Shown here in pieces: positions 7,116 through 18,409 of a stretch of DNA of 64,000 nt. Within the stretch, counting starts at the first letter, position 1; each line of letters opens with the position of its first letter. The notes under the pieces were generated by a model that saw nothing but the letters and a program-made list of their open reading frames with translations, had not been told where the DNA came from and did not search any database. A program made the translations under genes and the position numbers. The DNA comes from Candidatus Scybalocola faecigallinarum (GTDB taxonomy: Bacteria; Bacillota; Clostridia; Lachnospirales; Lachnospiraceae): positions 1,801 through 65,800 of the forward strand of contig DVIT01000015.1 in NCBI GenBank assembly GCA_018711005.1, written 5' to 3'.

Positions 7116-8243
7116 TCACAGGCCGTAAGCGCGGGCCTCAAGGAGACTGCAGATCTGCCGCCTTCCTGCGGCCGCAACTGTAAGACCGCTAAAAATCAAA
7201 GCAATGATCACGCCCCCTGTTCCGATCACTGCAAGAACGGCGGCATTATATTCCAGGGAAAAGGGGAATACCTTTCCCAGAACGCCGGCAGTGATCCCGG
7301 CATCTATGACTAAAGCGGCAGCCACAAGAATAAGGTTCTGCACCAGGGCTTCCAAAAACAGCCGCCACTTTCCTGCGCCTGCGCTGCGCCGTATACCGTA
7401 GCTGTATTGTTCATTCATGATACAGCCCATAAGGATGAGTCCCACACTAAGGAGCGCAAAGATCATCACAATACCGCCAATGATCAGCCAGCCTGACAGG
7501 GATGCCCGGATGGACGCGTTGATCTGCTCATCTTCCTCAAGGGCCGTCATGGGATCCGACACGCTAAGACCGCCAATGCGATTCAGGCGTGTGACCATAA
7601 GCTCCACACCATCCTCATTCCACGGCTCAGAAGCAGCAATAACCAACCGGTGCTGCATGGCATTTTCCCCGGAAATTTCTCCCATAACAGGGTAGGGGAC
7701 GATCACTGAGGCCAGGATGCGGGTACTGTCAAACATGCCCACCACTTCAAACTCATGTCCCAGGATCCGCAGCTTATCCCCAATACCGCCGCCCCGGGCC
7801 GCAAAATCCGAGGTTGTCTTTACCATACATACATTTGTTCCGGCATCCTCAAGCTCCTGATCGGTAAAGAGCCGTCCGGCTTCAAGGGTATATGGCGACA
7901 AACGAAAAATCTCCGCCGTGGCCCCGCCAACGGTACTGATCAATGTGGTTCCCTGCCAGTCTATAGTTGTCTGGCGCAGACACTCATAGCCGTACTCATA
8001 ATCGCTTAATGCACGGGCTGTATTTTCAGCCGTATAATCCTTTATCACTTTTCGGCTGTCGCTGACAATCAGCACATTTTCAGGAGCATCATAGGCAAAC
8101 TGCCCAATGTCGCTGTAAAGTGCGGATATATGTCCCAACACATAAATGGGGCACAATAGTCCCGCAGCAATGGCCAATACAAGGATCACCTGGATCTTAA
8201 CCTGGTACTTCATATGCCCCAAAGCGCTTTTCAGTAAAAACAT
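7116..8243 (-). CDS. MacB/FtsX-like ABC permease, short type B (copy B3)
   Basis: GRLFTDQEL and FEVVGMF (MacB periplasmic core motifs), GIRRSAGA; 1+3 TM layout. Confidence 0.85.
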   Translation of the reverse strand: MFLLKSALGHMKYQVKIQVILVLAIAAGLLCPIYVLGHISALYSDIGQFAYDAPENVLIVSDSRKVIKDYTAENTARALSDYEYGYECLRQTTIDWQGTTLISTVGGATAEIFRLSPYTLEAGRLFTDQELEDAGTNVCMVKTTSDFAARGGGIGDKLRILGHEFEVVGMFDSTRILASVIVPYPVMGEISGENAMQHRLVIAASEPWNEDGVELMVTRLNRIGGLSVSDPMTALEEDEQINASIRASLSGWLIIGGIVMIFALLSVGLILMGCIMNEQYSYGIRRSAGAGKWRLFLEALVQNLILVAAALVIDAGITAGVLGKVFPFSLEYNAAVLAVIGTGGVIIALIFSGLTVAAAGRRQICSLLEARAYGL

Positions 8244-8294
8244 AACATCCCTCCCCCTTATAAAACCATGTTAAGGCAAATTAAAATCTGACCT

Positions 8295-9683
8295 CTAAAC
8301 CTGTTCCTCCGTATCGTGAACCCCTGCCGCGCCAATGGCACAGCAGATCAGGGCTGCTGCCAGGCAAAAAGCAATGGCAGGCACGATCAGCTCCGGATAA
8401 AAAACCGCCCGGGTCGGCTCTGTTATAGGCAGAGGCGTTAATATCCGATATGGATTGTAAGAAATGGATTCTGTCACCCCGGCGCCAATGGTTTGAAGCA
8501 TTGGGGTCACCGCGGCTGCCCCAAAAATCCCCAGAATGCTTCCTGCCAAAAAGACCAGCGCTACTTCTCCAAACAGCTCCATAAAGCTTTGCCAGCGGGT
8601 GGCGCCGCAGCAGTAAGCAATTTTTAAAGACGCGCTTCTGCAAAAAATCTGCTTCTGGACGCGCCCGACAGTCCCGGCAAGGCAAATCGCCAGGATCACT
8701 GCCGCCACTGCCATATAGCGCGTGATCACTCCGCCCATATCCTGGGCCATGCTATCCATGGTGTACATTTTGCTGGATACGGAAAATTGATAATGATCCT
8801 CCCCTCGCTCACGGCCCAGCCAGTTGGCCATGTCCGGGGCGATCTTAGGATCAAAATTCTTTGTCAGATACCGGATCTGAAGAATGGAATCAAAAGGATC
8901 ATAATCCTCTGACACATAGGCCAGCATATCTGTGGAACCGATAATACAGTCCTGGATCTCAAAACGGGCCCCATCTGCCGGATCCAGCATCTCACATATG
9001 GAAAGACGGTCAATATAGGGCGTCTGTTCTTCATTGGGAATAGGTTCCCAGGACAGGGCATGATCTTTTGATAATACGATCTTGTTATTCTCTATCTTAA
9101 AATCATAAAATACAAGCTTCGTCTCCTGGGATTGAAATACTTCCGGATTCAAAGATTCCTCATGGCCAATACAATACACCGGATAATCATCCAGATGTCC
9201 GGCCTTTTGCAGAACAGCCGCGGCGCGGCTCCCTGCATACAGCCGGTCATCCTGACGTTTAAAGGAGAACATGTCTTCAAACATAGCGTCATTCATAAAA
9301 ACAATTTCCAACGGCGTTGACTGCTCATCTTCCCCTTGGGAAAACAGGCGGGCCGATGCGAAATAAATGGCCCCGTAATAAATTTCCGCCTGATCGCCGT
9401 ACATTTCCGAAAGCTTCAGGTAATCCTCATACCGGACTGCCATAGTATCCGCATAGGCCCCCGGATCCATGGAACCGCCCGCCTGATTATGGTAGATCAC
9501 TGTCTTTTCCATGGTCATATCCTCCCGGTAGCTGTCTAAAATCCTCTGGTTGGTAAACAGCAGATTCATTCCTGAAACAAGAATACCGATCCCCGCGGCC
9601 AGTTCAAGGATCGTCAGCCAATAAACATTTTTATGGCTCCAAAGCAACCGGCAGATCCGATACCATGTATATTTCATTTGCAT
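8295..9683 (-). CDS. MacB/FtsX-like ABC permease, long type A (copy A3)
   Basis: Homologous to A1/A2 (VRYEDY, FMND.MFE..FSF, DRLY.GSR, EPIPNEE.TPYIDR); YCCGATRW. Confidence 0.85.
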   Translation of the reverse strand: MQMKYTWYRICRLLWSHKNVYWLTILELAAGIGILVSGMNLLFTNQRILDSYREDMTMEKTVIYHNQAGGSMDPGAYADTMAVRYEDYLKLSEMYGDQAEIYYGAIYFASARLFSQGEDEQSTPLEIVFMNDAMFEDMFSFKRQDDRLYAGSRAAAVLQKAGHLDDYPVYCIGHEESLNPEVFQSQETKLVFYDFKIENNKIVLSKDHALSWEPIPNEEQTPYIDRLSICEMLDPADGARFEIQDCIIGSTDMLAYVSEDYDPFDSILQIRYLTKNFDPKIAPDMANWLGRERGEDHYQFSVSSKMYTMDSMAQDMGGVITRYMAVAAVILAICLAGTVGRVQKQIFCRSASLKIAYCCGATRWQSFMELFGEVALVFLAGSILGIFGAAAVTPMLQTIGAGVTESISYNPYRILTPLPITEPTRAVFYPELIVPAIAFCLAAALICCAIGAAGVHDTEEQV

Positions 9684-9689
9684 CCTCTC

Positions 9690-10997
9690 CTATCCCCGAA
9701 AAATGGCCGCTGCCTCAAAACACCCGGCATCATATTTTAAACTCAGCTCTCCCCCGTGGCCCTCCACAATGGCCCGGACACTTTCCAGTCCCCAGCCGTG
9801 TTCCCGGGTATACCCCTTTGTGGATATGAATTTTCCATCCTTCTCCACCGGCGGACGGCCACAGGAATTTTTTATGCTTAAAATAAGGATTTTCCCCTGC
9901 TGGGTCATGCGAACCTCCACCCACCGTTCTTTCGGCGCTTTTCCTGCCGCCTCAAAGGCATTGTCCAAAAGATTTCCAAAAAGAACGCACATATCCGCAT
10001 CCGGCAAAAATGTACAAAGAAATGCTCCCTCAATATGAAAATCAATATTCTCCTGCCGGGCCAGCTCTGTCTTTTCACCAAGCAGGCTGTCCACCACCGG
10101 ATTTCCCGTCCACCGCCGGATCCGGTTCTGGCTTTCAGACACTGAAGCTAAAAGCCCTTTTACATGCTCCAGGGCCTTTTCATCCTCCCCATTCTCCAAA
10201 TAAACCTGAATGGGGGCAAGGCGGTATTTCATATCATGAAGCTCCCGGCTCTTTTGCTCATAATCGCTGCGTATTTCTTTATAACGCAGTTCCCGCTGCT
10301 TTTCCTCCAGCTGCTTTTGCTGCCGCTGGATCTCTGCCTGCCGGAAAATAATATAGCCGGCAAACACAACCACAAGGACAAGGATCAATACAATGGAGGA
10401 AATACTGTAAATCAGCACATCCAGCGTACTCTCCTGAAACCCCAGCCTTAGAAAATAAGTGCAGATCCACCACTGGATCACACCAAAACCGATCCATAAA
10501 AGGGCGTTTTTCGCCACGATCACCTGGCTTATATAGGTCCGCGCCTTTGCGCCCCATTTTCTTTCCAAAAACAAAAGCCTGGCCCACAAAAGGGCAAGAT
10601 AAATATAATCCACAGCCACAGGCTTGTGGATACATTCAATAAAGGGTTCGCCGGTAATCCAGCCGCTGAGCACGATTCCCGGAAGCTCCAGGAGACTGAT
10701 GGTTCCAAAATAAATGGCCGGCCAGGCCAAAGCGCACAAAACACACTTTTTTGTAAAAATAATTGCTGCCAGGAAAAAGATCATAACAAGGGAAATGGTC
10801 TGTATATTGGAAAAACGTATCTCCATGACCCGGTTGAGCATAATATTGGCAGCGGGCAGCGCCAGAAAAGCTCCATACTCCGCCCAAACGGCCCATTTCC
10901 CATGAAATCTCCGGTCCGGGACCGTCTGAAACAAGGTATAGCCAAGCCAGGCCTCTGCCACAGCATTAAATAAATCCACGAACCATCCAACGATCAT
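9690..10997 (-). CDS. AgrC-like GHKL sensor histidine kinase (HK2), paralogue of HK1
   Basis: ELHDMKYRL, LFGNLLDNAFEA, EHGWGLESV. The sensor domain shares RRFH, RFSN and GTISLLELPGI.LSGW.TG.P with HK1. Confidence 0.9.
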   Translation of the reverse strand: MIVGWFVDLFNAVAEAWLGYTLFQTVPDRRFHGKWAVWAEYGAFLALPAANIMLNRVMEIRFSNIQTISLVMIFFLAAIIFTKKCVLCALAWPAIYFGTISLLELPGIVLSGWITGEPFIECIHKPVAVDYIYLALLWARLLFLERKWGAKARTYISQVIVAKNALLWIGFGVIQWWICTYFLRLGFQESTLDVLIYSISSIVLILVLVVVFAGYIIFRQAEIQRQQKQLEEKQRELRYKEIRSDYEQKSRELHDMKYRLAPIQVYLENGEDEKALEHVKGLLASVSESQNRIRRWTGNPVVDSLLGEKTELARQENIDFHIEGAFLCTFLPDADMCVLFGNLLDNAFEAAGKAPKERWVEVRMTQQGKILILSIKNSCGRPPVEKDGKFISTKGYTREHGWGLESVRAIVEGHGGELSLKYDAGCFEAAAIFRG

Positions 10998-11734
10998 GCC
11001 TGTTCCCCTCCGGAAAGCCGTTCAAGACAATACTCCATCACCTTCTGCCGCACATCCGTCAAATGACTTTTGCTGGCCTCCGCCTCCAGGCCGCAGCTTA
11101 AATGAAGGATGCGGCTGGTATCAATATCATGAATGTGGCCTACATTGACCAGGATCCCTTTATTAACCACAACAAATGCCCCGGACTTTAGCTGCTCCAT
11201 AAGACTTCGTATAGAGCTGCGCACTTTATACTCCCCCTCACGGGTATAAATAAGGGAATACTTATTATCTTCCTTCACAATCTTTATAATATCCTCATAG
11301 GGGATCTTCCGTGTTCCTGAGGCGTTTCGCACCACAAAATACCGGCCCTTCTGGTTTTTGATCCTGGACAGGGCATAGGCCAAATCTCCGGGAAGCTTTT
11401 CTTCCAGCTTCTCCTTTAAAATATACCGCAGCGCCCCGACCTCATAGCCTTCCGGACAGTATTCAATATGACTGGTCACAAAAATAATGTACGAAGCCCC
11501 GCAGTTTTCCTGGATAAGCCTTGCCAGCTCCATCCCCGTATACCCTGGCATTTCCACATCCAGCAAAAAAATATCATAATGGATCCCTTCTTCAATATCC
11601 GCCTTTAAAAAAGAAGGATCCCCCATAGGGGTCACTTTCAGCTCAAAATGTTCTTTTTTCACCGTTTCCTTTACGATCTTACAGATCCGGTCCCGGTCCT
11701 TTGGATTGTCATCCACAACAGCCAGGCTGATCAT
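10994..11734 (-). CDS. AgrA-like LytTR response regulator (RR2)
   Basis: VVDDN, DIFLLDVEMP, RYILK, FVVVNKGILVNVGHI. Start is probably the ATG at 11734 after GGGAGG. Confidence 0.9.
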   Translation of the reverse strand: MISLAVVDDNPKDRDRICKIVKETVKKEHFELKVTPMGDPSFLKADIEEGIHYDIFLLDVEMPGYTGMELARLIQENCGASYIIFVTSHIEYCPEGYEVGALRYILKEKLEEKLPGDLAYALSRIKNQKGRYFVVRNASGTRKIPYEDIIKIVKEDNKYSLIYTREGEYKVRSSIRSLMEQLKSGAFVVVNKGILVNVGHIHDIDTSRILHLSCGLEAEASKSHLTDVRQKVMEYCLERLSGGEQA

Positions 11735-11870
11735 ATCCATCCTCCCTCTCCACACTTTTCTCCTTTAAGTGTAGCATAAAGCTGCTGTGGATGTCAGTCT
11801 TCATTTTTCATTAAAGTATTCTTTTATAATCATTGGCCAGATCAGCGAGAAGCGCCATCCGGCTCACCTG

Positions 11871-12542
11871 TCACTCCATTTGTTCTTCCAGCTTTCCATC
11901 AGACATATGCAGCAGCCGGTGGGCGTAGTCCGCCACCTTAGCGTCGTGGGTCACTAATACGATGGTTAGTCCCTGGTCATTTAGTGTTTTTAACATATCC
12001 ATAACTTTTATGCCATTTTCTTCATCCAGGCTTCCTGTGGGTTCATCGGCCAAAAGCACATCCGGATCCGCGGCAATAGCCCGGGCGATAGCTACACGCT
12101 GCTGTTCCCCGCCGGAAAGCTGGGATGGTTTCCGCCTGGCCTTGTCCTTTAATCCTACTTTTTCCAAAAGCTCCATGGCCCTGGCCTTCCGCTCCTTTGC
12201 CCCGGCCCCGCCATAGCCTAAAGGCAGGGCTACATTATCCATCACATTAAATTCCGGAAGGAGATGAAAGGATTGGAACACAAAACCTACCTTTTTATTT
12301 CTGAAATGAGCCAGCTGCCGGGCGTTCATGGCGGACACCGGCTCGTCCTCAAACAGATACGTTCCCTCATCCGAGCTGTCCATGCCGCCTAAAATATTGA
12401 GCAGCGTACTTTTACCGCAGCCGGATCTGCCCATAATGGCTACAAACTCTCCCCGCTCCACATCCAGGCTGACATCTTTCAACACCTGGGTGACCACATC
12501 TTTGGTTTTATAGGACTTAAATAAATGTTCTACTTTAATCAT
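11871..12542 (-). CDS. ABC transporter ATP-binding protein, MacB/LolD family
   Basis: Walker A GRSGCGKS, signature LSGGEQQRV, Walker [10 protein letters not shown]-loop VTHD. Confidence 0.95.
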
Positions 12543-12554
12543 GAAGAATCCCCC

Positions 12555-13874
12555 CTATAATTCTTTTAGATTTTTCACCGGATCTTTATTATCCACCCCG
12601 GCCAGAGCCGCCCCGCAGCACAGCAAGGCTGCCGCCAGGCAAAAAAGAATGACAAAAACAATATTCACCGGATAAAAATCCGCTGCGGATTCTACCGCGG
12701 ACAGCCTTGGGGTGATCCCCCCGGATAAGGCCAATCCTAAAATCCCCCCTGCTAAAAATACACTGGAAATTTCACCGTAAAGTTCCAGAAAACTTTTCCA
12801 GGGGGTGGCGCCGCAGCAGTAGGCTACTGCCATGGACTTTTTTCTTTGGTTCAAAATAACAAGCAGAATACCCACTGTCCCAATTAACACAATAGCTACA
12901 ATCGCCAGGGAAACGATCATATATTTAAAAATCCGGGCATTCATTTCGCTGGAATATTTTTCCATAGAAAGAGCCTTATCCGTCAGATTAAACTTATATC
13001 CCGCTGTCCCCCGCTCCCGGTTCAGCCAGTTTACAAGTGTAGGAATAACGCTGGGATCCTGGGCATCCTCCCGGTACTTTGCTTGTAAAATGAAATCAAA
13101 GGGATAGTATTCCCGGGATATATAAGGAAGCATATCCACCGTACCGATAATACAGTCCTCAATATACAGTCTCGCCCCGTCTTCCGGATCCATATATTGA
13201 GTAAAGGACAGACGGTCAATGTACGGTGTAGTTTCTTCATTTGGAATAGGCTCATATTCCAGGGTATTCCCTTGGGAAAGCTGTATTTTTCCATCTTTAA
13301 CCAGAAAACACCGGCAAACCACGTTCACCTTTTCCTGGCTAAATCTGTCAGGATCCTCTTCTTCACCATATCCCCAGCATACAAGATTGTAATTATCCAT
13401 ATCCGCCGCTTTGCTAAGAAGGTCCGCCGCCCTGCTCCCTACATACAGACGATCTGGCTGCCGTTCAAAGGAAAATATAGACTCAAACATTGTATCATTC
13501 ATAAAGAGGAAATTGATGTTTGAAAGTTCATTGACCTGACCGTAAAGAAACAGGCCAATAGAAGCATCATAATAAGCTGTATAATACAGGTCTACAGAAT
13601 TGCCAAATTGTTCTTCAAGATACTGGTAATCCTGGTATCTTACCGCAAGTTCCGGTTCACTATCAAAATCCTTGTTAGACGTATTATAGTAAATTACTGT
13701 TGGGGATTCTGCCATCATTTTCTGGTGTTCATGTAAAATATCCCTATTGGTAAGCATAATATTCAAACATACCACAAAAATTGTAACACCGACTGCCATC
13801 TCCAGCACAATGAGTCCGTATATTTTTTTATTTCCCCACATTAATTTTAAAAGACGGTAAAACATATATCTCAT
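12555..13874 (-). CDS. MacB/FtsX-like ABC permease, long type A (copy A2)
   Basis: 1+3 TM layout; YCCGATPW; C-terminus nearly identical to A1. Confidence 0.88.
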   Translation of the reverse strand: MRYMFYRLLKLMWGNKKIYGLIVLEMAVGVTIFVVCLNIMLTNRDILHEHQKMMAESPTVIYYNTSNKDFDSEPELAVRYQDYQYLEEQFGNSVDLYYTAYYDASIGLFLYGQVNELSNINFLFMNDTMFESIFSFERQPDRLYVGSRAADLLSKAADMDNYNLVCWGYGEEEDPDRFSQEKVNVVCRCFLVKDGKIQLSQGNTLEYEPIPNEETTPYIDRLSFTQYMDPEDGARLYIEDCIIGTVDMLPYISREYYPFDFILQAKYREDAQDPSVIPTLVNWLNRERGTAGYKFNLTDKALSMEKYSSEMNARIFKYMIVSLAIVAIVLIGTVGILLVILNQRKKSMAVAYCCGATPWKSFLELYGEISSVFLAGGILGLALSGGITPRLSAVESAADFYPVNIVFVILFCLAAALLCCGAALAGVDNKDPVKNLKEL

Positions 13875-13887
13875 ACATCATTCCCCC

Positions 13888-15000
13888 TTATCCCCGTCTT
13901 TCAATCAGCCGGCTTACAGGCTTTTTGCATCCATGAACGGAAAATAAAGTTAAAATCAAAGCCAGGATCATTCCTATACCGATAATCTGTACAATACATA
14001 GGACACTGTATTGTACTTCCATTTCCATGACTTTTTCCCAGGGCAGGCATAAAATCGCACCATCTACGATTAAAGCCGCCATAACCAGTATAATATTCTG
14101 CATAAGAGCCTCAAAAAAGAGCTGGCTTTGAGTCGCACCTATGGCCTTATGCAGTCCCATAAGCTTTCGTTCCTCCAGACTCCGCCCGGCAGAAATTGCA
14201 GATATACTTAAAAAAGCAAAAAAACATACAACAAATCCGATCAAAAGCCATTTCTGGTTTTGCTGGTCAATGATTTCATTTGCTGCTTTTTCTTCCTCAA
14301 CCATAGAGGTTACGGAATAAATATTCACATCAAACATGGATTGAGTTTTAGCCATAATGGACGCTTCTAACCCTTCATCGCCTTTTGGAATAATAAAACG
14401 GTGCTGTATGGAACTATTTCCGGAAACGTAATACATTTGGGGATAGGGAATAAGGATTGCTCCGATCAGGTTAGAGCCCCAGCCATCAATGACGCCGATA
14501 ACCTCATAGGTATTGCCCATAAAGAAAATTTCATCTCCTACCCTTGCCCCTGCCAGATATAAAGCGCTGTTATCCGCTAATATACAGACACTCCCCTGTT
14601 CATCTCCATAGTCATTTTCATCAAATAAACGTCCCTCTTTAACATACACCGGCACCCTGGAAAGGATGCCGGCGCTTACACCGCCTATAAAAGCAACACC
14701 ATTAACGTCCCCCCAACTCACTGTGGTTTGATACGCGCACTCATAATCATCCAGGGTTCCGCCAACAATATATTTCATATTTTCCAAAGCTGCCTGATCC
14801 ATAAAGGGCATTGATCCATTGACCAGCAGATAATCTTCCGGTGAAGAAAACCGGTGCATCTCTTCCATCTTTGCGGAGGTATGGATATACCCTAAAACAT
14901 AAACCGGGCAAAGCAGCCCAGCCGCAATAGACAGGACAAAGATCAGACAGATTTTTCTGCTGTAAATCAACTTTTTTAATGCGCACTTTATAACAAACAT
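13888..15000 (-). CDS. MacB/FtsX-like ABC permease, short type B (copy B2)
   Basis: EGRLFDENDY, YEVIGV, GLHKAIGA. Confidence 0.88.
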   Translation of the reverse strand: MFVIKCALKKLIYSRKICLIFVLSIAAGLLCPVYVLGYIHTSAKMEEMHRFSSPEDYLLVNGSMPFMDQAALENMKYIVGGTLDDYECAYQTTVSWGDVNGVAFIGGVSAGILSRVPVYVKEGRLFDENDYGDEQGSVCILADNSALYLAGARVGDEIFFMGNTYEVIGVIDGWGSNLIGAILIPYPQMYYVSGNSSIQHRFIIPKGDEGLEASIMAKTQSMFDVNIYSVTSMVEEEKAANEIIDQQNQKWLLIGFVVCFFAFLSISAISAGRSLEERKLMGLHKAIGATQSQLFFEALMQNIILVMAALIVDGAILCLPWEKVMEMEVQYSVLCIVQIIGIGMILALILTLFSVHGCKKPVSRLIERRG

Positions 15001-15018
15001 ATGGACACCTCCATAACA

Positions 15019-16344
15019 TTACAATTCTTTTAGATTTTTCACCGGATCTTTATTATCCACTCCGGCTAGCGCCGCCCCGCAGCACAGCAAGGCTGCCGCC
15101 AGGCAAAAGAGAATGACAAAAAAGATATTCACCGGATAAAAATCCGCTGCGGATTCTACCGCGGACAGCCTTGGGGTGATCCCCACGGATAAGGCCAATC
15201 CTAAAATTCCCCCTACTAAAAACACACTGGAAATTTCACCGTAAAGTTCCAGAAAACTTTTCCAGGGGGTGGCGCCGCAGCAGTAGGCTACTGCCATGGA
15301 CTTTTTTCTTTGGTTCAAAATAACAAGCAGAATACCCACTGTCCCGATCAGCACGACTGCCATGATTGCCAGAGAAACCGCCATGTATTGATAAATCGTT
15401 ATACTCATATCTCTGGCCTGTTTTTCCAGTTTTAATGCCCGATCTGTAAGGGTAAATTGATAATTATCCCCACTGCGCTCACGGTTCAGCCAGTTTACTA
15501 TAGCAGGGATGATACTGGAATCTTCCGCCTGGTCTAAATACTGAACCTGCAAAAGAGAATCTAATGGCCCATAGTCCTCAGACAGTAAGGGGAGCATATC
15601 CGCCGTACCAATCACACAGTCTTCAATATAAAGCCGCGCTGCTTCTTTGTCTGTGCCATAATACTCAAAGGAAAAACGGTCAATATATGGCGTACTTTCT
15701 TCATCCGGAATTGGCTCACAGTATAACTCATGCCCCTGGGATAAGACAAACTTTCCATCCTTAATCCGGAAACTATCGCAAACTGCATTGGTCTTTTCCT
15801 GGCTGTATACGCTTGTATCATATTCTTCCATATTGCCCCAGCATACTAAATTGTACGCTTCCTGATCTGACGCCTTTTTCAAAAGATCAAGAACACGGCT
15901 TCCTGCATATAACCGGTCCTCTTTGGGTTGAAAATCAAAAAGACTTTCAAACATGGCGTCATTCAAAAAAAGAAAATTTATTGCGTATATATCTGCCCCG
16001 GCATTGTTTCCAAAAAAGAAATAGCTGCCGGAATAAATGGCCCCATAATATATTTTTACGGAATCCCCATATTTTTCTTCCATATCAAGATAATGTTCGT
16101 ACCGGACCGGCAAATCGTCCGGGAGTACCTCATCCCCTGCAAACCGCACATGATATATAGTCGTCTGGTCTTGCGCCATCGATTGCCTAAGATCGTCTAA
16201 AATGTCTTTATTGGTAAGCATAAGGTTCAGGCATGAGACAAAAATCGTTATACCTATGGCAAGCTCCAGCATAATAATACTGTAAGCCCCTTTGCTTCCC
16301 CATATCATCTTCCTTATGCGATACGTCATATATTTCATCCGCAT
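15019..16344 (-). CDS. MacB/FtsX-like ABC permease, long type A (copy A1)
   Basis: 1+3 TM layout; YCCGATPW; ends DPVKNLKEL. Confidence 0.88.
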   Translation of the reverse strand: MRMKYMTYRIRKMIWGSKGAYSIIMLELAIGITIFVSCLNLMLTNKDILDDLRQSMAQDQTTIYHVRFAGDEVLPDDLPVRYEHYLDMEEKYGDSVKIYYGAIYSGSYFFFGNNAGADIYAINFLFLNDAMFESLFDFQPKEDRLYAGSRVLDLLKKASDQEAYNLVCWGNMEEYDTSVYSQEKTNAVCDSFRIKDGKFVLSQGHELYCEPIPDEESTPYIDRFSFEYYGTDKEAARLYIEDCVIGTADMLPLLSEDYGPLDSLLQVQYLDQAEDSSIIPAIVNWLNRERSGDNYQFTLTDRALKLEKQARDMSITIYQYMAVSLAIMAVVLIGTVGILLVILNQRKKSMAVAYCCGATPWKSFLELYGEISSVFLVGGILGLALSVGITPRLSAVESAADFYPVNIFFVILFCLAAALLCCGAALAGVDNKDPVKNLKEL

Positions 16345-16353
16345 CCCCTCCCG

Positions 16354-17469
16354 CTACCGTCTCTGCCGATCAAGCATCTGACGCACATTTTTTGCGGCCG
16401 TAACAACCGAGAAAATACTCATCATTAATGCTAAAACAAGACCTATACCTACAGCCTGCATCACACACATAAAGCTGTACTGAACCTGGGTCACAAATAT
16501 CTTTTCCAGGGGTAAGGATAGGAGTATACGATCAACGGCCAGGGCCGCCGCAACAATGACAATATTTTGTATTAAGGCCTGAGCAAAAAGCATACTTCCT
16601 TTTGCCCCGACAGCTTTATGGATTCCTACGATCTTTTGTTCTTCAAGGCTCCTTCCTAATGTAATGGCAAAAAGGCTAAAAAATGCAAACAAACATACGC
16701 ATCCCCCGGTTAAAAGCATTTTTACATTTTGCTGGGCATAAATTTCCTCCGCGATACGGTCTTCCTCTGCCAAAGTCGTTACTGTAAAAATATGAATATA
16801 CGGGTTCTCCTTGGATTTTGCTACAAGGCCTTCCCCATGCTCCAGCTCCTTAATAGGGATAATAAACCGGTGCTGAATCTCCCGGACGCCGGAAACATAG
16901 GACATGGCTGGATACGGCACCAGGACGCCGCCAAAAAGTTTTGACGACCGGCCTTCAATAATCCCTACAACCTGATAGCTGTTCCCCATAAATTCTACGG
17001 TATCTCCAATCCGGGTGCCCTGAATATACATTTCACTGGTGGATTTTAAAATACATACAGGCATTGCGTCCTGCTCATAATCTTTTTGCTCAAAAAGGCG
17101 GCCTTCTTTTAAATAAACAGGGACTCTGCCTAATATTCCTAAACTTACGCCTCCAACAGAATCTACGCCGTCCCCATGTTCCCAGCCCATTGTTGTCTCA
17201 TAAATACATTCATAGTCTTTTAAAGGGGTTCCTATAAAATCCTCCACATCATTATAGAAACTCCCTTCCATGACTTTAAGACTTCCATTGACCAGCCAGG
17301 ACTCATCCGCAGATTCATACCGGTTCATTGCATCCATAGCCGCTGATGTATGGATGTATCCCAGGATGTAAAACGGACAGATCAGCCCGGCGGCTATGGA
17401 CAGAATGAATATGAGGCTTATCTTTTTGTTGTATAACAGCCGTTTTAAGGCACACTGAATCACAAACAT
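16354..17469 (-). CDS. MacB/FtsX-like ABC permease, short type B (copy B1)
   Basis: EGRLFEQKDY, YQVVGII, GIHKAVGA. Confidence 0.88.
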   Translation of the reverse strand: MFVIQCALKRLLYNKKISLIFILSIAAGLICPFYILGYIHTSAAMDAMNRYESADESWLVNGSLKVMEGSFYNDVEDFIGTPLKDYECIYETTMGWEHGDGVDSVGGVSLGILGRVPVYLKEGRLFEQKDYEQDAMPVCILKSTSEMYIQGTRIGDTVEFMGNSYQVVGIIEGRSSKLFGGVLVPYPAMSYVSGVREIQHRFIIPIKELEHGEGLVAKSKENPYIHIFTVTTLAEEDRIAEEIYAQQNVKMLLTGGCVCLFAFFSLFAITLGRSLEEQKIVGIHKAVGAKGSMLFAQALIQNIVIVAAALAVDRILLSLPLEKIFVTQVQYSFMCVMQAVGIGLVLALMMSIFSVVTAAKNVRQMLDRQRR

Positions 17470-17527
17470 AAGAGCCTCCCCCCAATCAAAATTATGTAAT
17501 TCCCCATCCGTTTTTTATTACAATCTA

Positions 17528-17588
17528 ATTATACTATATCTAGGCTTTTGTGCCCGTCCTGTCCGTTAAATCGACTTTTATGTACATT
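17528..17588 (-). promoter_or_regulatory. Putative LytTR-activated promoter of the permease array
   Basis: TATAAT at 17528-17533 with no recognisable -35; AATGTACA/AACGGACA repeats with 21-bp period upstream. Confidence 0.45.
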
Positions 17589-17610
17589 TCCCGAAAAGGC
17601 CAGGTTCTGC

Positions 17611-17767
17611 CCGCGCAAGCGCGGCTTGGGCTCATTAAGTGGTCCTGACGGGTAACATCCCTCCACTAGGTTCGGTCCGCGCCTGCGGCTTGACCTCTCC
17701 AAGGGTCGGGATGTGCGTTCCCACTAAATTCCCCCGGCGCCTTACGGCTTGGGCTCATTAAGTGGTC
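17611..17767. repeat. Palindromic element bracketed by a 23-bp direct repeat
   Basis: CGGCTTGGGCTCATTAAGTGGTC at 17622-17644 and 17745-17767. The interior folds as GGGTAACATCCC...GGGATGTGCGTTCCC, and a hairpin CCGCGC-AA-GCGCGG lies at 17611-17624. Confidence 0.75.
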
Positions 17768-17772
17768 ACAGC

Positions 17773-17816
17773 AAAAAGGCAGCCCCATGAGAAAATTTAT
17801 TTCTCATGGGGCTGCC
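17773..17816 (-). terminator. Rho-independent terminator of the alpha operon (after rplQ)
   Basis: 17-bp stem GGCAGCCCCATGAGAAA/TTTCTCATGGGGCTGCC, 5-nt loop, T5 tail on the minus strand. Confidence 0.9.
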
Positions 17817-17872
17817 CTTATCTTTCGTTCAGCCAAGCGTGCCTGTTTACAGGCCGCCTGGCGTTTTTCTTA

Positions 17873-18409
17873 TTAAACTAACTCAATAAGAACTTCCATC
17901 GCTGCATCGCCTTTACGCTGGCCGATCTTTACGATACGTGTGTAGCCACCGTTGCGGTCTGCATACTTAGGAGCAAGTTCATCGAATAATTTCTTTGTCA
18001 GGTCAACAGACTTTGTGTTTGCTTTCTTCTTAGCGGCTTCCTTTGGAACTTCGGTTACCGGATAAAGAACTTTAAGCATCTGTCTTCTGGCATGAAGTCT
18101 GGAAGCGCTGTCCTTCTGGATCTTCTTCTCTACAGTATCAAATACTGTAACTTTCTTACCGTCAACAACTTCTTTGACTCTCTTGCCGTCTTTATCTTTA
18201 CGAGCGACCTTTGCCTGTACAGTTACTGTTTCAAAATTATCTTTTTCCTTCACAGCAAGGGCAATAAGGCCTTCTGTAATTCTTCTGATTTCTTTTGCTT
18301 TCGCTTCAGTTGTGCGAATCTTGCCATTATATAAAAGGCTTGTCACCTGACTTCTAAGCAAAGCTTTTCTCTGGTTGGAAGTTCTTCCAAGTTTTCTATA
18401 GCCTGCCAT
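17873..18409 (-). CDS. rplQ: 50S ribosomal protein L17 (long form with internal insertion)
   Basis: [45 protein letters not shown]. Confidence 0.97.

Follow-up and report, generated by a model that had tools for sequence, protein, structure and literature searches.

A peptide-less AgrC/LytTR-type sensor pair in a MacB/FtsX transporter array of a gut Lachnospiraceae bacterium: a candidate lanthipeptide receptor

Why would a transporter array encode a sensor pair of a peptide-linked family and no peptide for it to sense? The question arises in a 64,000-nucleotide stretch of contig DVIT01000015.1 (here called the window) from Candidatus Scybalocola faecigallinarum, a chicken-gut member of the Lachnospiraceae whose assembly comprises 3.39 Mb and is 98.5% complete (G000). 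Embedded among MacB/FtsX-type permease genes lie the genes for the response regulator (RR) RR2 and the histidine kinase (HK) HK2, and the same locus encodes their relatives RR1 and HK1 together with a lanthipeptide precursor gene (lanA) and a LanM synthetase gene. Every gene treated here lies on the minus strand and is transcribed from high to low coordinates, which are given as window positions (Table 1). An initial annotation had read RR2-HK2 as a duplicated receptor pair that might eavesdrop on a competitor's lanthipeptide and switch on immunity pumps; its observations were confirmed, and its interpretation was supported only in part. We observed homology to HK1/RR1, orphan status, conserved synteny, purifying selection, no co-variation with lanA, and a characteristic operator architecture and distribution; from these we infer a ligand, a pairing of regulator with operator, and a function for the transporters. 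We propose, at a probability of roughly 0.45, that HK2/RR2 may induce the MacB/FtsX transporter array as a receptor for the lanthipeptide class that is independent of pherotype.

An orphan pair in a lanthipeptide-linked receptor family

HK2 and HK1 align without gaps, membrane sensor included (181 of 433 residues identical, 42%; expect value E = 4e-136), as do RR2 and RR1 (117 of 239, 49%). The motifs that the initial annotation had listed as common to the kinases (RRFH, RFSN and LAW..IY.GTISLLELPGI.LSGW.TG.P) and to the regulators (LARLIQE.CG and GYEVGA.RYILK.KL.EKLP) are all present in these alignments. A search of 5.8 billion proteins yielded 16 clusters at least 40% identical to HK2 over its full length, with bit scores of 311 to 977 (at least 387 for full-length members), below which the next-best match falls to 26% identity and 128 bits. 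This narrow family with its abrupt lower edge rules out that the sensor similarity is generic to AgrC-like kinases. Family members occur in four of the eight genomes of the genus, and 400 other genomes of the bacterial family, nearly one per genus, gave no match at E <= 1e-50. Other AgrC-like paralogues of the same genome match HK2 mainly in the kinase half (29 to 31% identity from about residue 182); one spans residues 57 to 433 at merely 26% identity (E = 1.8e-15). At 40% identity or more over the sensor, HK2 belongs to the same seven-transmembrane (7-TM) sensor family as HK1.

Elsewhere in this family the kinase gene is tied to a peptide. In every neighborhood read of a member outside the HK2 group (L009, L012, L016/L017, the G001 cassette contig L102, L104 to L106, G407, G403:C6 and P0041; the cassette-clade proteins P0006, P0007 and P0014 lay outside this reading), an open reading frame (ORF) for a peptide of about 43 amino acids (aa) ending in ...CC directly follows the kinase gene, and LanM comes next wherever enough downstream DNA was read. 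HK2 is followed neither by such a precursor nor by LanM. Its stop codon is separated by 6 bp (GAGAGG) from the ATG of the permease gene A3, the DNA at and beyond HK2 contains no lanA-like ORF, and a tblastn search with four lanA variants plus a pattern scan of the 3.39-Mb genome found only the lanA at 1896-2027; the genome has a single LanM. The junction and the genome-wide scan thus confirm a permease 6 bp after HK2 with no precursor ORF, and the reading of the pair as a peptide-less member of an otherwise lanA-type-linked family holds wherever neighborhoods were read.

Other sources of a signal were also considered. A genome-wide search with the AgrB profile PF04647 gave only a sub-threshold match of 18.4 bits, and the HK2 locus contains neither AgrB nor AgrD genes, unlike a canonical agr (AgrBDCA) locus. 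Feeding of HK2 by an agrBD pair elsewhere in the genome, in the manner of VirSR, was rejected because there is no AgrB above threshold in the genome; with no second lanA either, the genome encodes no alternative cognate signal. Peptidase_C39 domains, as in LanT-type exporters, are absent from the genome, and the lanA leader carries no GG/GA site. No transporter other than the MacB/FtsX array has a genetic tie to the peptide, and the array may serve peptide export, protection, or both.

A third LytTR regulator (267 aa) and an adjoining AgrC-like kinase (444 aa) are encoded outside the window in the same genome (C55:2747-5000, minus strand). The small ORF after this kinase ends in ...EELLEIQKFENTQEEVAESKFTNNPTYSVLCC and resembles lanA in its leader style and C-terminal CC (tblastn E = 0.002); a secreted protein and a lipoprotein follow, and no LanM. 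The C55 locus suggests a wider family of RR-HK-"CC" peptide cassettes that depends on LanM only in part.

The kinase family is monophyletic (support 99/99), and within it three orphan kinases form a clade (87/78) outside the HK1 clade (100/100). Besides HK2 of the window, they comprise its orthologues (92 to 93% identity) on contigs of the type of Candidatus Scybalocola faecavium, the nearest named relative at this locus, and an orthologue in a more distant genome that GTDB places in the same genus (G001, the same as G408; kinase 53%, regulator 61%). The orphan regulators likewise form a clade (99/98), nested among cassette regulators and sister to the L009/L012 type (97/97). All orphans keep the order RR2-HK2-A3-type permease without a peptide gene, so the phylogenetic check suggested in the initial annotation found HK2 orthologues beside an A3-type permease and never beside lanA in three lineages. 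Each HK2-bearing genome also has a separate RR-HK-lanA-LanM cassette, and among the three lineages there was no non-producer genome with HK2 and no cassette. A second search for homologues, started from the distant orphan P0003, returned no additional orphans.

The proposal of a simple duplication of HK1 had to be abandoned, since HK2 sits in its own old orphan clade and is closer to foreign cassette kinases (52% to P0004, 50% to P0005 and P0006) than to HK1 (42%). The guanine-plus-cytosine content of RR2 (47%) and HK2 (49%) is near the genome mean of 46.8%, against 38% for RR1, 33% for HK1 and 29% for lanA; this host-like composition agrees with an old lineage rather than a recent copy of HK1. 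Judging from their place in the trees, HK2 and RR2 appear to be an old lineage that did not arise by recent copying of HK1 in situ. We infer that the pair probably descends from a cassette ancestor that either lost lanA-lanM or was captured beside a permease. The missing C-terminal tail of HK2 was tried as a deletion scar and found non-diagnostic, as the tail-less 437-aa kinase P0041 still precedes a 43-aa ORF. S. faecavium also has a second, distant RR-HK-peptide-LanM cassette (L103, G002:C21, 2712-8009, minus strand), whose peptide ends in ...ETIIGLCGFLTISGC and whose kinase is 36% identical to the HK2 kinase half.

HK2 consists of a sensor (about residues 1 to 217) followed by DHp and CA domains, and its catalytic residues H254/D255, N342/N346 and G401/G403 do not vary across the aligned family. 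Hydropathy and an AlphaFold2 model (predicted local distance difference test score 74.5) give seven TM helices with the N terminus outside; in the model the helices span residues 2-23, 34-57, 64-81, 86-115, 128-159, 162-186 and 192 onward. The cytoplasmic half superposes on histidine kinase cores, including the AgrC cytoplasmic domain (6e95/6e52), and RR2 matches ComE (4cbv) over its full length. A sequence search of the PDB with HK2 gave no match, and the fold search returned generic kinase cores only, with the sensor unmatched. HK2 thus combines GHKL boxes, a polytopic sensor without a large extracellular domain and an adjacent LytTR regulator, as AgrC-like (HPK10-type) kinases do. Two predicted outer segments, residues 56-64 (NRxxxxRFSN) and 102-128 (ELPGI..SGW.TG.P...C), are 65 to 67% identical between HK2 and the cassette kinases, compared with 42% for the DHp and CA domains, and hold 14 family-invariant columns. 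As the best-conserved parts of the comparison, these outer loops would fit a ligand of the same chemical class, as had been suggested from HK1 and HK2 alone.

Variation of HK2 and of the resident peptide

Purifying selection acts on HK2. Compared between the window and S. faecavium, the whole gene has a ratio of nonsynonymous to synonymous substitution rates (dN/dS) of 0.12 at a dS of 0.36; by part, the ratio is 0.21 for residues 1-100, 0.065 for residues 101-215 and 0.10 for the kinase half. In dS, HK2 resembles its neighbors, the ATPase gene (0.35) and RR2 (0.50), in contrast to HK1, lanA and LanM (1.4 to 1.7), whose high dS marks them as exchanged alleles.

Comparisons among strains separate HK2 from the cassette further. 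Between the window and two contigs of the same lineage (L104 and L105), the ATPase and RR1 are 100% identical, LanM is 98 to 99% identical and HK2 is 99.5% identical (two substitutions), whereas HK1 is only 57 to 61% and lanA 56% identical. Within the S. faecavium lineage, L019 and L106 share 98.2% identity in HK2, 67% in HK1 and 60% in lanA. The window has the core peptide SFSSYCGGYLTVICC and L104/L105 have TFSESCGGFLTVICC, two of four core alleles that also include SFSESCGAHLTLICC and SFSESCGGFITLICC. The uncoupling runs in both directions, as L016 and L019 have identical lanA and different HK2 alleles, and L016 and L106 have identical HK2 and different lanA. HK2 does not track the resident peptide, and the co-variation of kinase and peptide alleles that characterizes the cassettes does not extend to it. 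Being uncoupled from lanA, HK2 is unlikely to be a receptor for its own strain's product only, unless it recognizes nothing except the invariant scaffold xFSxxCGxxxTxxCC. An HK2 that answers only HK1's peptide, the outcome that the initial annotation had set against itself, is thereby made unlikely by an HK2 identity of 98 to 99.5% across swaps of lanA and HK1.

HK2 is variable in a place of its own. Over the 6.8 kb from the ATPase gene to A4, L019 and L016 have about 45 differences, 33 of them within about 300 bp of HK2; this tract is 89.4% identical and its flanks are 99.5 to 99.9% identical. The codon differences in the tract are 19 synonymous and 8 nonsynonymous, including E117Q, H124R and E125R, and H124R also separates the window from L104/L105. 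The tract represents imported allelic variation that stays within the likely ligand-facing part of HK2 and is independent of lanA, and it suggests that HK2 has specificity variants of its own. Residues 85 to 157, approximately, are likely the specificity region of the receptor family. A single metagenome (ERZ21564551) contains two lineages bearing the HK2 locus, which makes exposure to foreign peptide variants realistic.

A separate pattern was observed in the neighboring permease. Between the window and L105, which has another lanA/HK1 allele, A3 differs by 20 substitutions, mostly in its predicted ectodomain (residues 90-348), beside two in HK2; B3 is 99 to 100% identical between the window and L104/L105. 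Among the transporter components, A3 may be the one whose sequence follows the peptide allele.

Promoters, operators and gene layout

The promoters of this family share a layout in which two GGACA-type half-sites recur at a 21-bp period and the one nearer the -10 element lies 24 to 27 nt upstream of it. They fall into two operator classes, cassette and permease, that differ in their 3' flank. The cassette flank GGACANTTTRTGC occurs at the RR1 promoter (P_RR1) and at cassette-linked promoters; the permease flank is GGACAGGAYG. At the head of the array, half-sites GTACAT-N15-GGACAGGACG lie at the 21-bp period, 25 nt upstream of TATAAT. The pattern GKACA-N16-GGACAGGAYG has one match in the window, and 100 shuffles gave none. 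Its matches among 115 fetched loci are limited to the array head, the homologous S. faecavium promoter and the interval between the HK2-type gene and A3 in G001, and the permease-type operator is thus confined to the three RR2-bearing lineages. Across the 3.39-Mb genome, a looser composite that includes the -10 element matched no sites besides P_RR1 and the array head, and five shuffles gave no match; this count measures specificity and not independent discovery, as the pattern was built from these two sites. At the array head, the window and S. faecavium agree in the operator and the -10 element and diverge in the 13-nt spacer that separates these two and in all sequence further downstream. 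The three-lineage distribution supports the claim of a dedicated operator type that would tie RR2-type regulators to permease promoters, and we suggest that RR2 may act at the GGACAGGAYG operator.

The promoter candidate reported upstream of RR2 in the initial annotation, CTGACA-18-TGcTACACT, does exist, and its S. faecavium counterpart has CTGTCA. It is the only extended-TG match in 5400-18000, and promoter-like matches in general are not above shuffles (28 versus 21.7 +/- 5.2); the site is plausible as the RR2-HK2 promoter. The operator scan found no LytTR-type tandem operator there. The sequence ATGGCG...TGGCCAAT upstream of RR2 was rejected as an RR1-like operator, as it has the wrong spacing and no GGACA half-sites. 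No terminator-like hairpin lies between the ATPase stop codon and RR2. RR2-HK2 is probably expressed constitutively from this operator-less promoter. The S. faecavium leader of RR2 (L019:2880-2925) contains roughly 40 inserted nt, including a perfect hairpin (GCTGTTCACGGCGTGAACAGC-like), between the -10 element and the ribosome-binding site; the insertion is absent from the window and may be a regulatory or insulating stem-loop.

RR2 probably starts at the ATG at 11740, which is preceded by GGGAGG. Its stop codon overlaps the HK2 start (ATGA), and A3-B3-A4 are presumably co-transcribed with HK2.

Table 1. Features of the locus in the window, and operators of the two classes in related genomes
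Feature	Coordinates	Strand	Description
rplQ	17873-18409	-	followed by its own terminator
Intergenic region rplQ/B1	17470-17872		403 bp
Array head promoter, proposed RR2 operator	17585-17528	-	GTACAT-N15-GGACAGGACGGGCAC; permease class
B1	16354-17469	-	MacB_PCD/FtsX permease (Pfam)
A1	15019-16344	-	FtsX permease (Pfam)
B2	13888-15000	-	MacB_PCD/FtsX permease (Pfam)
A2	12555-13874	-	FtsX permease (Pfam)
ABC (ATP-binding cassette) ATPase	11871-12542	-	MacB/LolD-like; the array's only ATPase; upstream of RR2
Gap ATPase/RR2	11756-11870		115 bp
RR2-HK2 candidate sigma-A promoter	11797-11768	-	CTGACA-18-TGcTACACT
RR2	10994-11755	-	253 aa; Response_reg 4.9e-12 and LytTR 6.5e-13 (Pfam)
HK2	9690-10997	-	435 aa; GHKL/HATPase_c_5 (PF14501) 7.1e-18
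HK2 sensor mosaic segment	10488-10797	-	codons about 68-170: TM3-TM4, outer loop, TM5
A3	8295-9683	-	FtsX permease, 462 aa (Pfam)
B3	7116-8243	-	MacB_PCD/FtsX permease (Pfam)
A4	5764-7119	-	FtsX permease (Pfam)
328-aa protein	4559-5545	-	GLEQ-repeat (Yae1_N) tail; between the two modules
P_RR1 operator	4281-4339	-	GGTCAA-N15-GGACAATTTATGC; cassette class
RR1	3451-4239	-	comparison unit
HK1	2011-3351	-	comparison unit
lanA	1896-2027	-	43 aa; comparison unit
LanM	3-1829	-	extends beyond the window
Operator, S. faecavium P_RR1			GGCCAA-N15-GGACATTTTATGC; cassette class
Operator, L009			GGAAAA-N15-GGACAGTTTGTGC; cassette class
Operator, L012, after LanM			GGACAA-N15-GTACACTTTGTGC; cassette class
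Operator, S. faecavium homologous promoter after rplQ			GTACAC-N15-GGACAGGACGGGTAT; permease class
Operator, G001, between HK2-type gene and A3			GGACAG-N15-GGACAGGATGCGCAG; permease class

In S. faecavium the array promoter heads four extra genes before B1 (L107, G002:C5, reverse orientation, 8939-11286), which encode a 306-aa protein, a 270-aa lipoprotein-like protein and two small secreted proteins (85 and 95 aa). An extra B1-A1-ATPase unit is present in L107 and in the same-lineage contigs L008 and L015; together, these additions indicate that the array content is fluid. Upstream, from the rplQ terminator to the array promoter (17600-17770, minus strand), about 170 nt are approximately 95% conserved with S. 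faecavium. This stretch contains CCACTTAATGAGCCCAAGCCG twice, about 123 nt apart, a paired motif that is also found at C27 and C61 of the genome, and a search of it against Rfam gave no family, only chance hairpin matches. The stretch may represent a small repeated element or an RNA of unknown type. The 328-aa protein between the two modules, which we take to be an Rpn-type nuclease or putative transposase-like protein, received no confirmation of that name from the library search. It is full length in the window lineage, with ORFs of 328 aa in L104 and 342 aa in L105 at the same position (assigned by position), and S. faecavium keeps just a 108-aa remnant (81% identity).

A proposed model, its alternatives and known systems

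We hypothesize that HK2/RR2 is a functional orphan two-component system that came from an RR-HK-lanA-LanM cassette and has since shed, or did not retain, a peptide and synthetase of its own. RR2-HK2 would be transcribed from its own operator-less promoter, with read-through from the array promoter probably adding to it. In the membrane, HK2 would serve as a 7-TM AgrC-type receptor with the outer-face motifs of its family and would detect mature xFSxxCGxxxTxxCC lanthipeptides of any allele, self and non-self. It would then phosphorylate RR2, which would bind the tandem GKACA-N16-GGACAGGAYG site at the head of the MacB/FtsX and ATPase array. The transporters would be induced for export, self-protection or both, and RR2/HK2 with them through read-through, while HK1/RR1 would stay an allele-specific circuit that auto-induces peptide production.

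Several points weigh against this model. The conservation of the outer loops may be structural rather than due to ligand contact, and the topology of HK2 comes from hydropathy and a medium-confidence AlphaFold2 model. The GGACA core is common to both operator classes, so the array could be driven by RR1, with RR2 acting on another target; what ties RR2 to the permease operator is its occurrence in three lineages and, in G001, its proximity. In the window no separate promoter serves A3-B3-A4, which come after HK2, and the only ATPase gene lies upstream, which leaves the regulatory logic incomplete. The exchange of a sensor tract, which shows that the specificity of HK2 may vary, fits a purely generalist receptor poorly. 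Finally, HK2 is frameshifted in two of seven assemblies (L008 and L015); these contigs hold further broken genes, and for that reason the frameshifts are read as probable assembly errors. The same frameshifts, with the lack of a peptide gene, could instead mark a decaying relic, a cassette remnant with no present signaling role after the loss of lanA-lanM. We consider this very improbable given the dN/dS of 0.12, the intact catalytic motifs, the translational coupling, the synteny that is kept down to 53% protein identity, and the other broken genes in the frameshifted contigs.

The remaining alternatives concern what HK2 senses. It is unlikely that HK2 binds no peptide and reads instead the state of the A3-type permease, in the manner of Bce flux sensing, or a perturbation of the membrane. 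The HK2-A3 adjacency is strictly kept in all orphan lineages (gaps of 6 to 12 bp in Scybalocola), FtsX-type permeases take part in BceS-BceAB sensory complexes (PMC5786555), and strains of different pherotype differ by 20 substitutions in A3, concentrated in its ectodomain, versus two in HK2. However, HK2 retains the full 7-TM AgrC-type sensor and the family-invariant motifs, unlike BceS-type kinases with two TM helices and no sensor, and this sensor is under purifying selection, with allele exchange in its loop region. A redundant receptor for the strain's own peptide, which would extend the HK1 signal to the transporters, has a smaller chance. The common sensor family and conserved outer loops would allow it, and there are precedents in peptide-less LamKR, which is reported to answer the same LamD558 peptide (PMC12405376), and in MrsR2/K2, which controls mrsFGE immunity on the producer's own mersacidin (PMC3141056). 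Yet a kinase confined to the strain's own peptide should have changed where lanA retains 56% and HK1 57 to 61% identity, and HK2 is 99.5% identical there.

The dedicated eavesdropper of the initial annotation, tuned to foreign variants and not to self so that the immunity pumps act only when a rival is present, is about as improbable as the own-peptide receptor. It accounts for an HK2 that does not co-vary with the resident lanA, for two lineages together in one sample, and for the swapping of the tract over the predicted outer loop (E117Q, H124R and E125R) between strains with the same lanA, as expected if ligands are external; mrsK2R2FGE without biosynthesis genes in Bacillus amyloliquefaciens FZB42 (PMC3141056) and the response of CprK to many lantibiotics (PMC5786555) are precedents. 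Against it, every HK2 genome has its own cassette and none of the three lineages includes an HK2-only non-producer, the cores differ at so few positions that excluding self would demand fine discrimination, and the excess of synonymous differences in the tract (19 versus 8) indicates import of an old allele and not demonstrated positive selection. The model of a class-wide receptor that drives the transporters can be sharpened, more tentatively, into a two-tier design. A private, allele-specific HK1 would auto-induce the lanthipeptide, and a public HK2 with an exchangeable segment of about 100 residues would hear the whole peptide class or foreign alleles and drive the array through its own operator variant. 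The strains offer a natural experiment, in which peptide and cognate kinase are swapped with HK2 fixed and the HK2 sensor segment is swapped with the peptide fixed. This makes it testable whether gut Lachnospiraceae split "who am I" signaling from "who else is here" sensing.

By its sequence, HK2/RR2 has the structural features of an AgrC/LytTR-type pair and lacks those of a cassette (peptide, LanM and co-variation). VirSR of Clostridium perfringens is also an orphan polytopic kinase/regulator pair, served by an AgrD-derived thiolactone from unlinked agrBD; the present genome differs in having no AgrB above threshold. In Clostridium agr loci that are followed by LanM-like genes, catalytic residues are missing from the LanM-like protein, and AgrD serves as the signal (PMC10301443). 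LamKR of Lactiplantibacillus plantarum, an agr-like LamCA paralogue without a peptide that is reported to sense LamC's peptide (PMC12405376), is closest in kind, being an AgrC-like kinase and LytTR regulator without peptide or processing genes beside a complete paralogous system. LamKR belongs to a thiolactone autoinducing peptide (AgrB/AgrD) system, however, whereas the peptides of the HK2 family are LanM substrates. Further, HK2/RR2 lies inside a MacB/FtsX operon and stays invariant across strains with swapped cognate peptide and kinase, whereas LamKR is not transporter-linked.

MrsK2/R2 is a classical EnvZ/OmpR-type pair, and MrsFGE is an ABC-2 (LanFEG) transporter. By this description they differ from HK2/RR2, which is AgrC/LytTR-type and homologous to the production sensor, and from its MacB/FtsX-type pumps. 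In the mersacidin cluster (MrsR2/K2-MrsFGE), which likewise makes a class II lanthipeptide, the ABC transporter is controlled by a two-component system distinct from the biosynthesis regulator, and the immunity-only mrsK2R2FGE of FZB42 illustrates that a sensor and pump module can exist without peptide genes (PMC3141056). CprK of the CprK-CprR/CprABC system of Clostridioides difficile has a 113-aa extracellular loop and is proposed to recognize ring features common to several lantibiotics; BceS has no sensor and depends on its transporter BceAB, which has an FtsX-type permease (PMC5786555). Both exemplify lantibiotic sensing of the non-producer type wired to an adjacent ABC transporter. They differ in kinase and regulator families, and the present organism is itself a producer. 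With seven TM helices in HK2 versus two, a LytTR-type versus an OmpR-type regulator, and MacB/FtsX permease units of about 370 to 460 aa versus the 10-TM BceB, the locus is not a Bce-type module. Orphan quorum-sensing receptors and lantibiotic-sensing immunity regulators are both already known, and in the literature searched we found no orphan of the AgrC/LytTR type that combines homology to a lanthipeptide-linked receptor with wiring to MacB-type pumps. If the two-tier design is true, it would be the first AgrC/LytTR-type orphan lanthipeptide receptor, in a producer with built-in eavesdropping. In wiring, its closest counterparts are Mrs, CprK-CprABC and BceRS-AB, in which a lantibiotic sensor drives an ABC pump.

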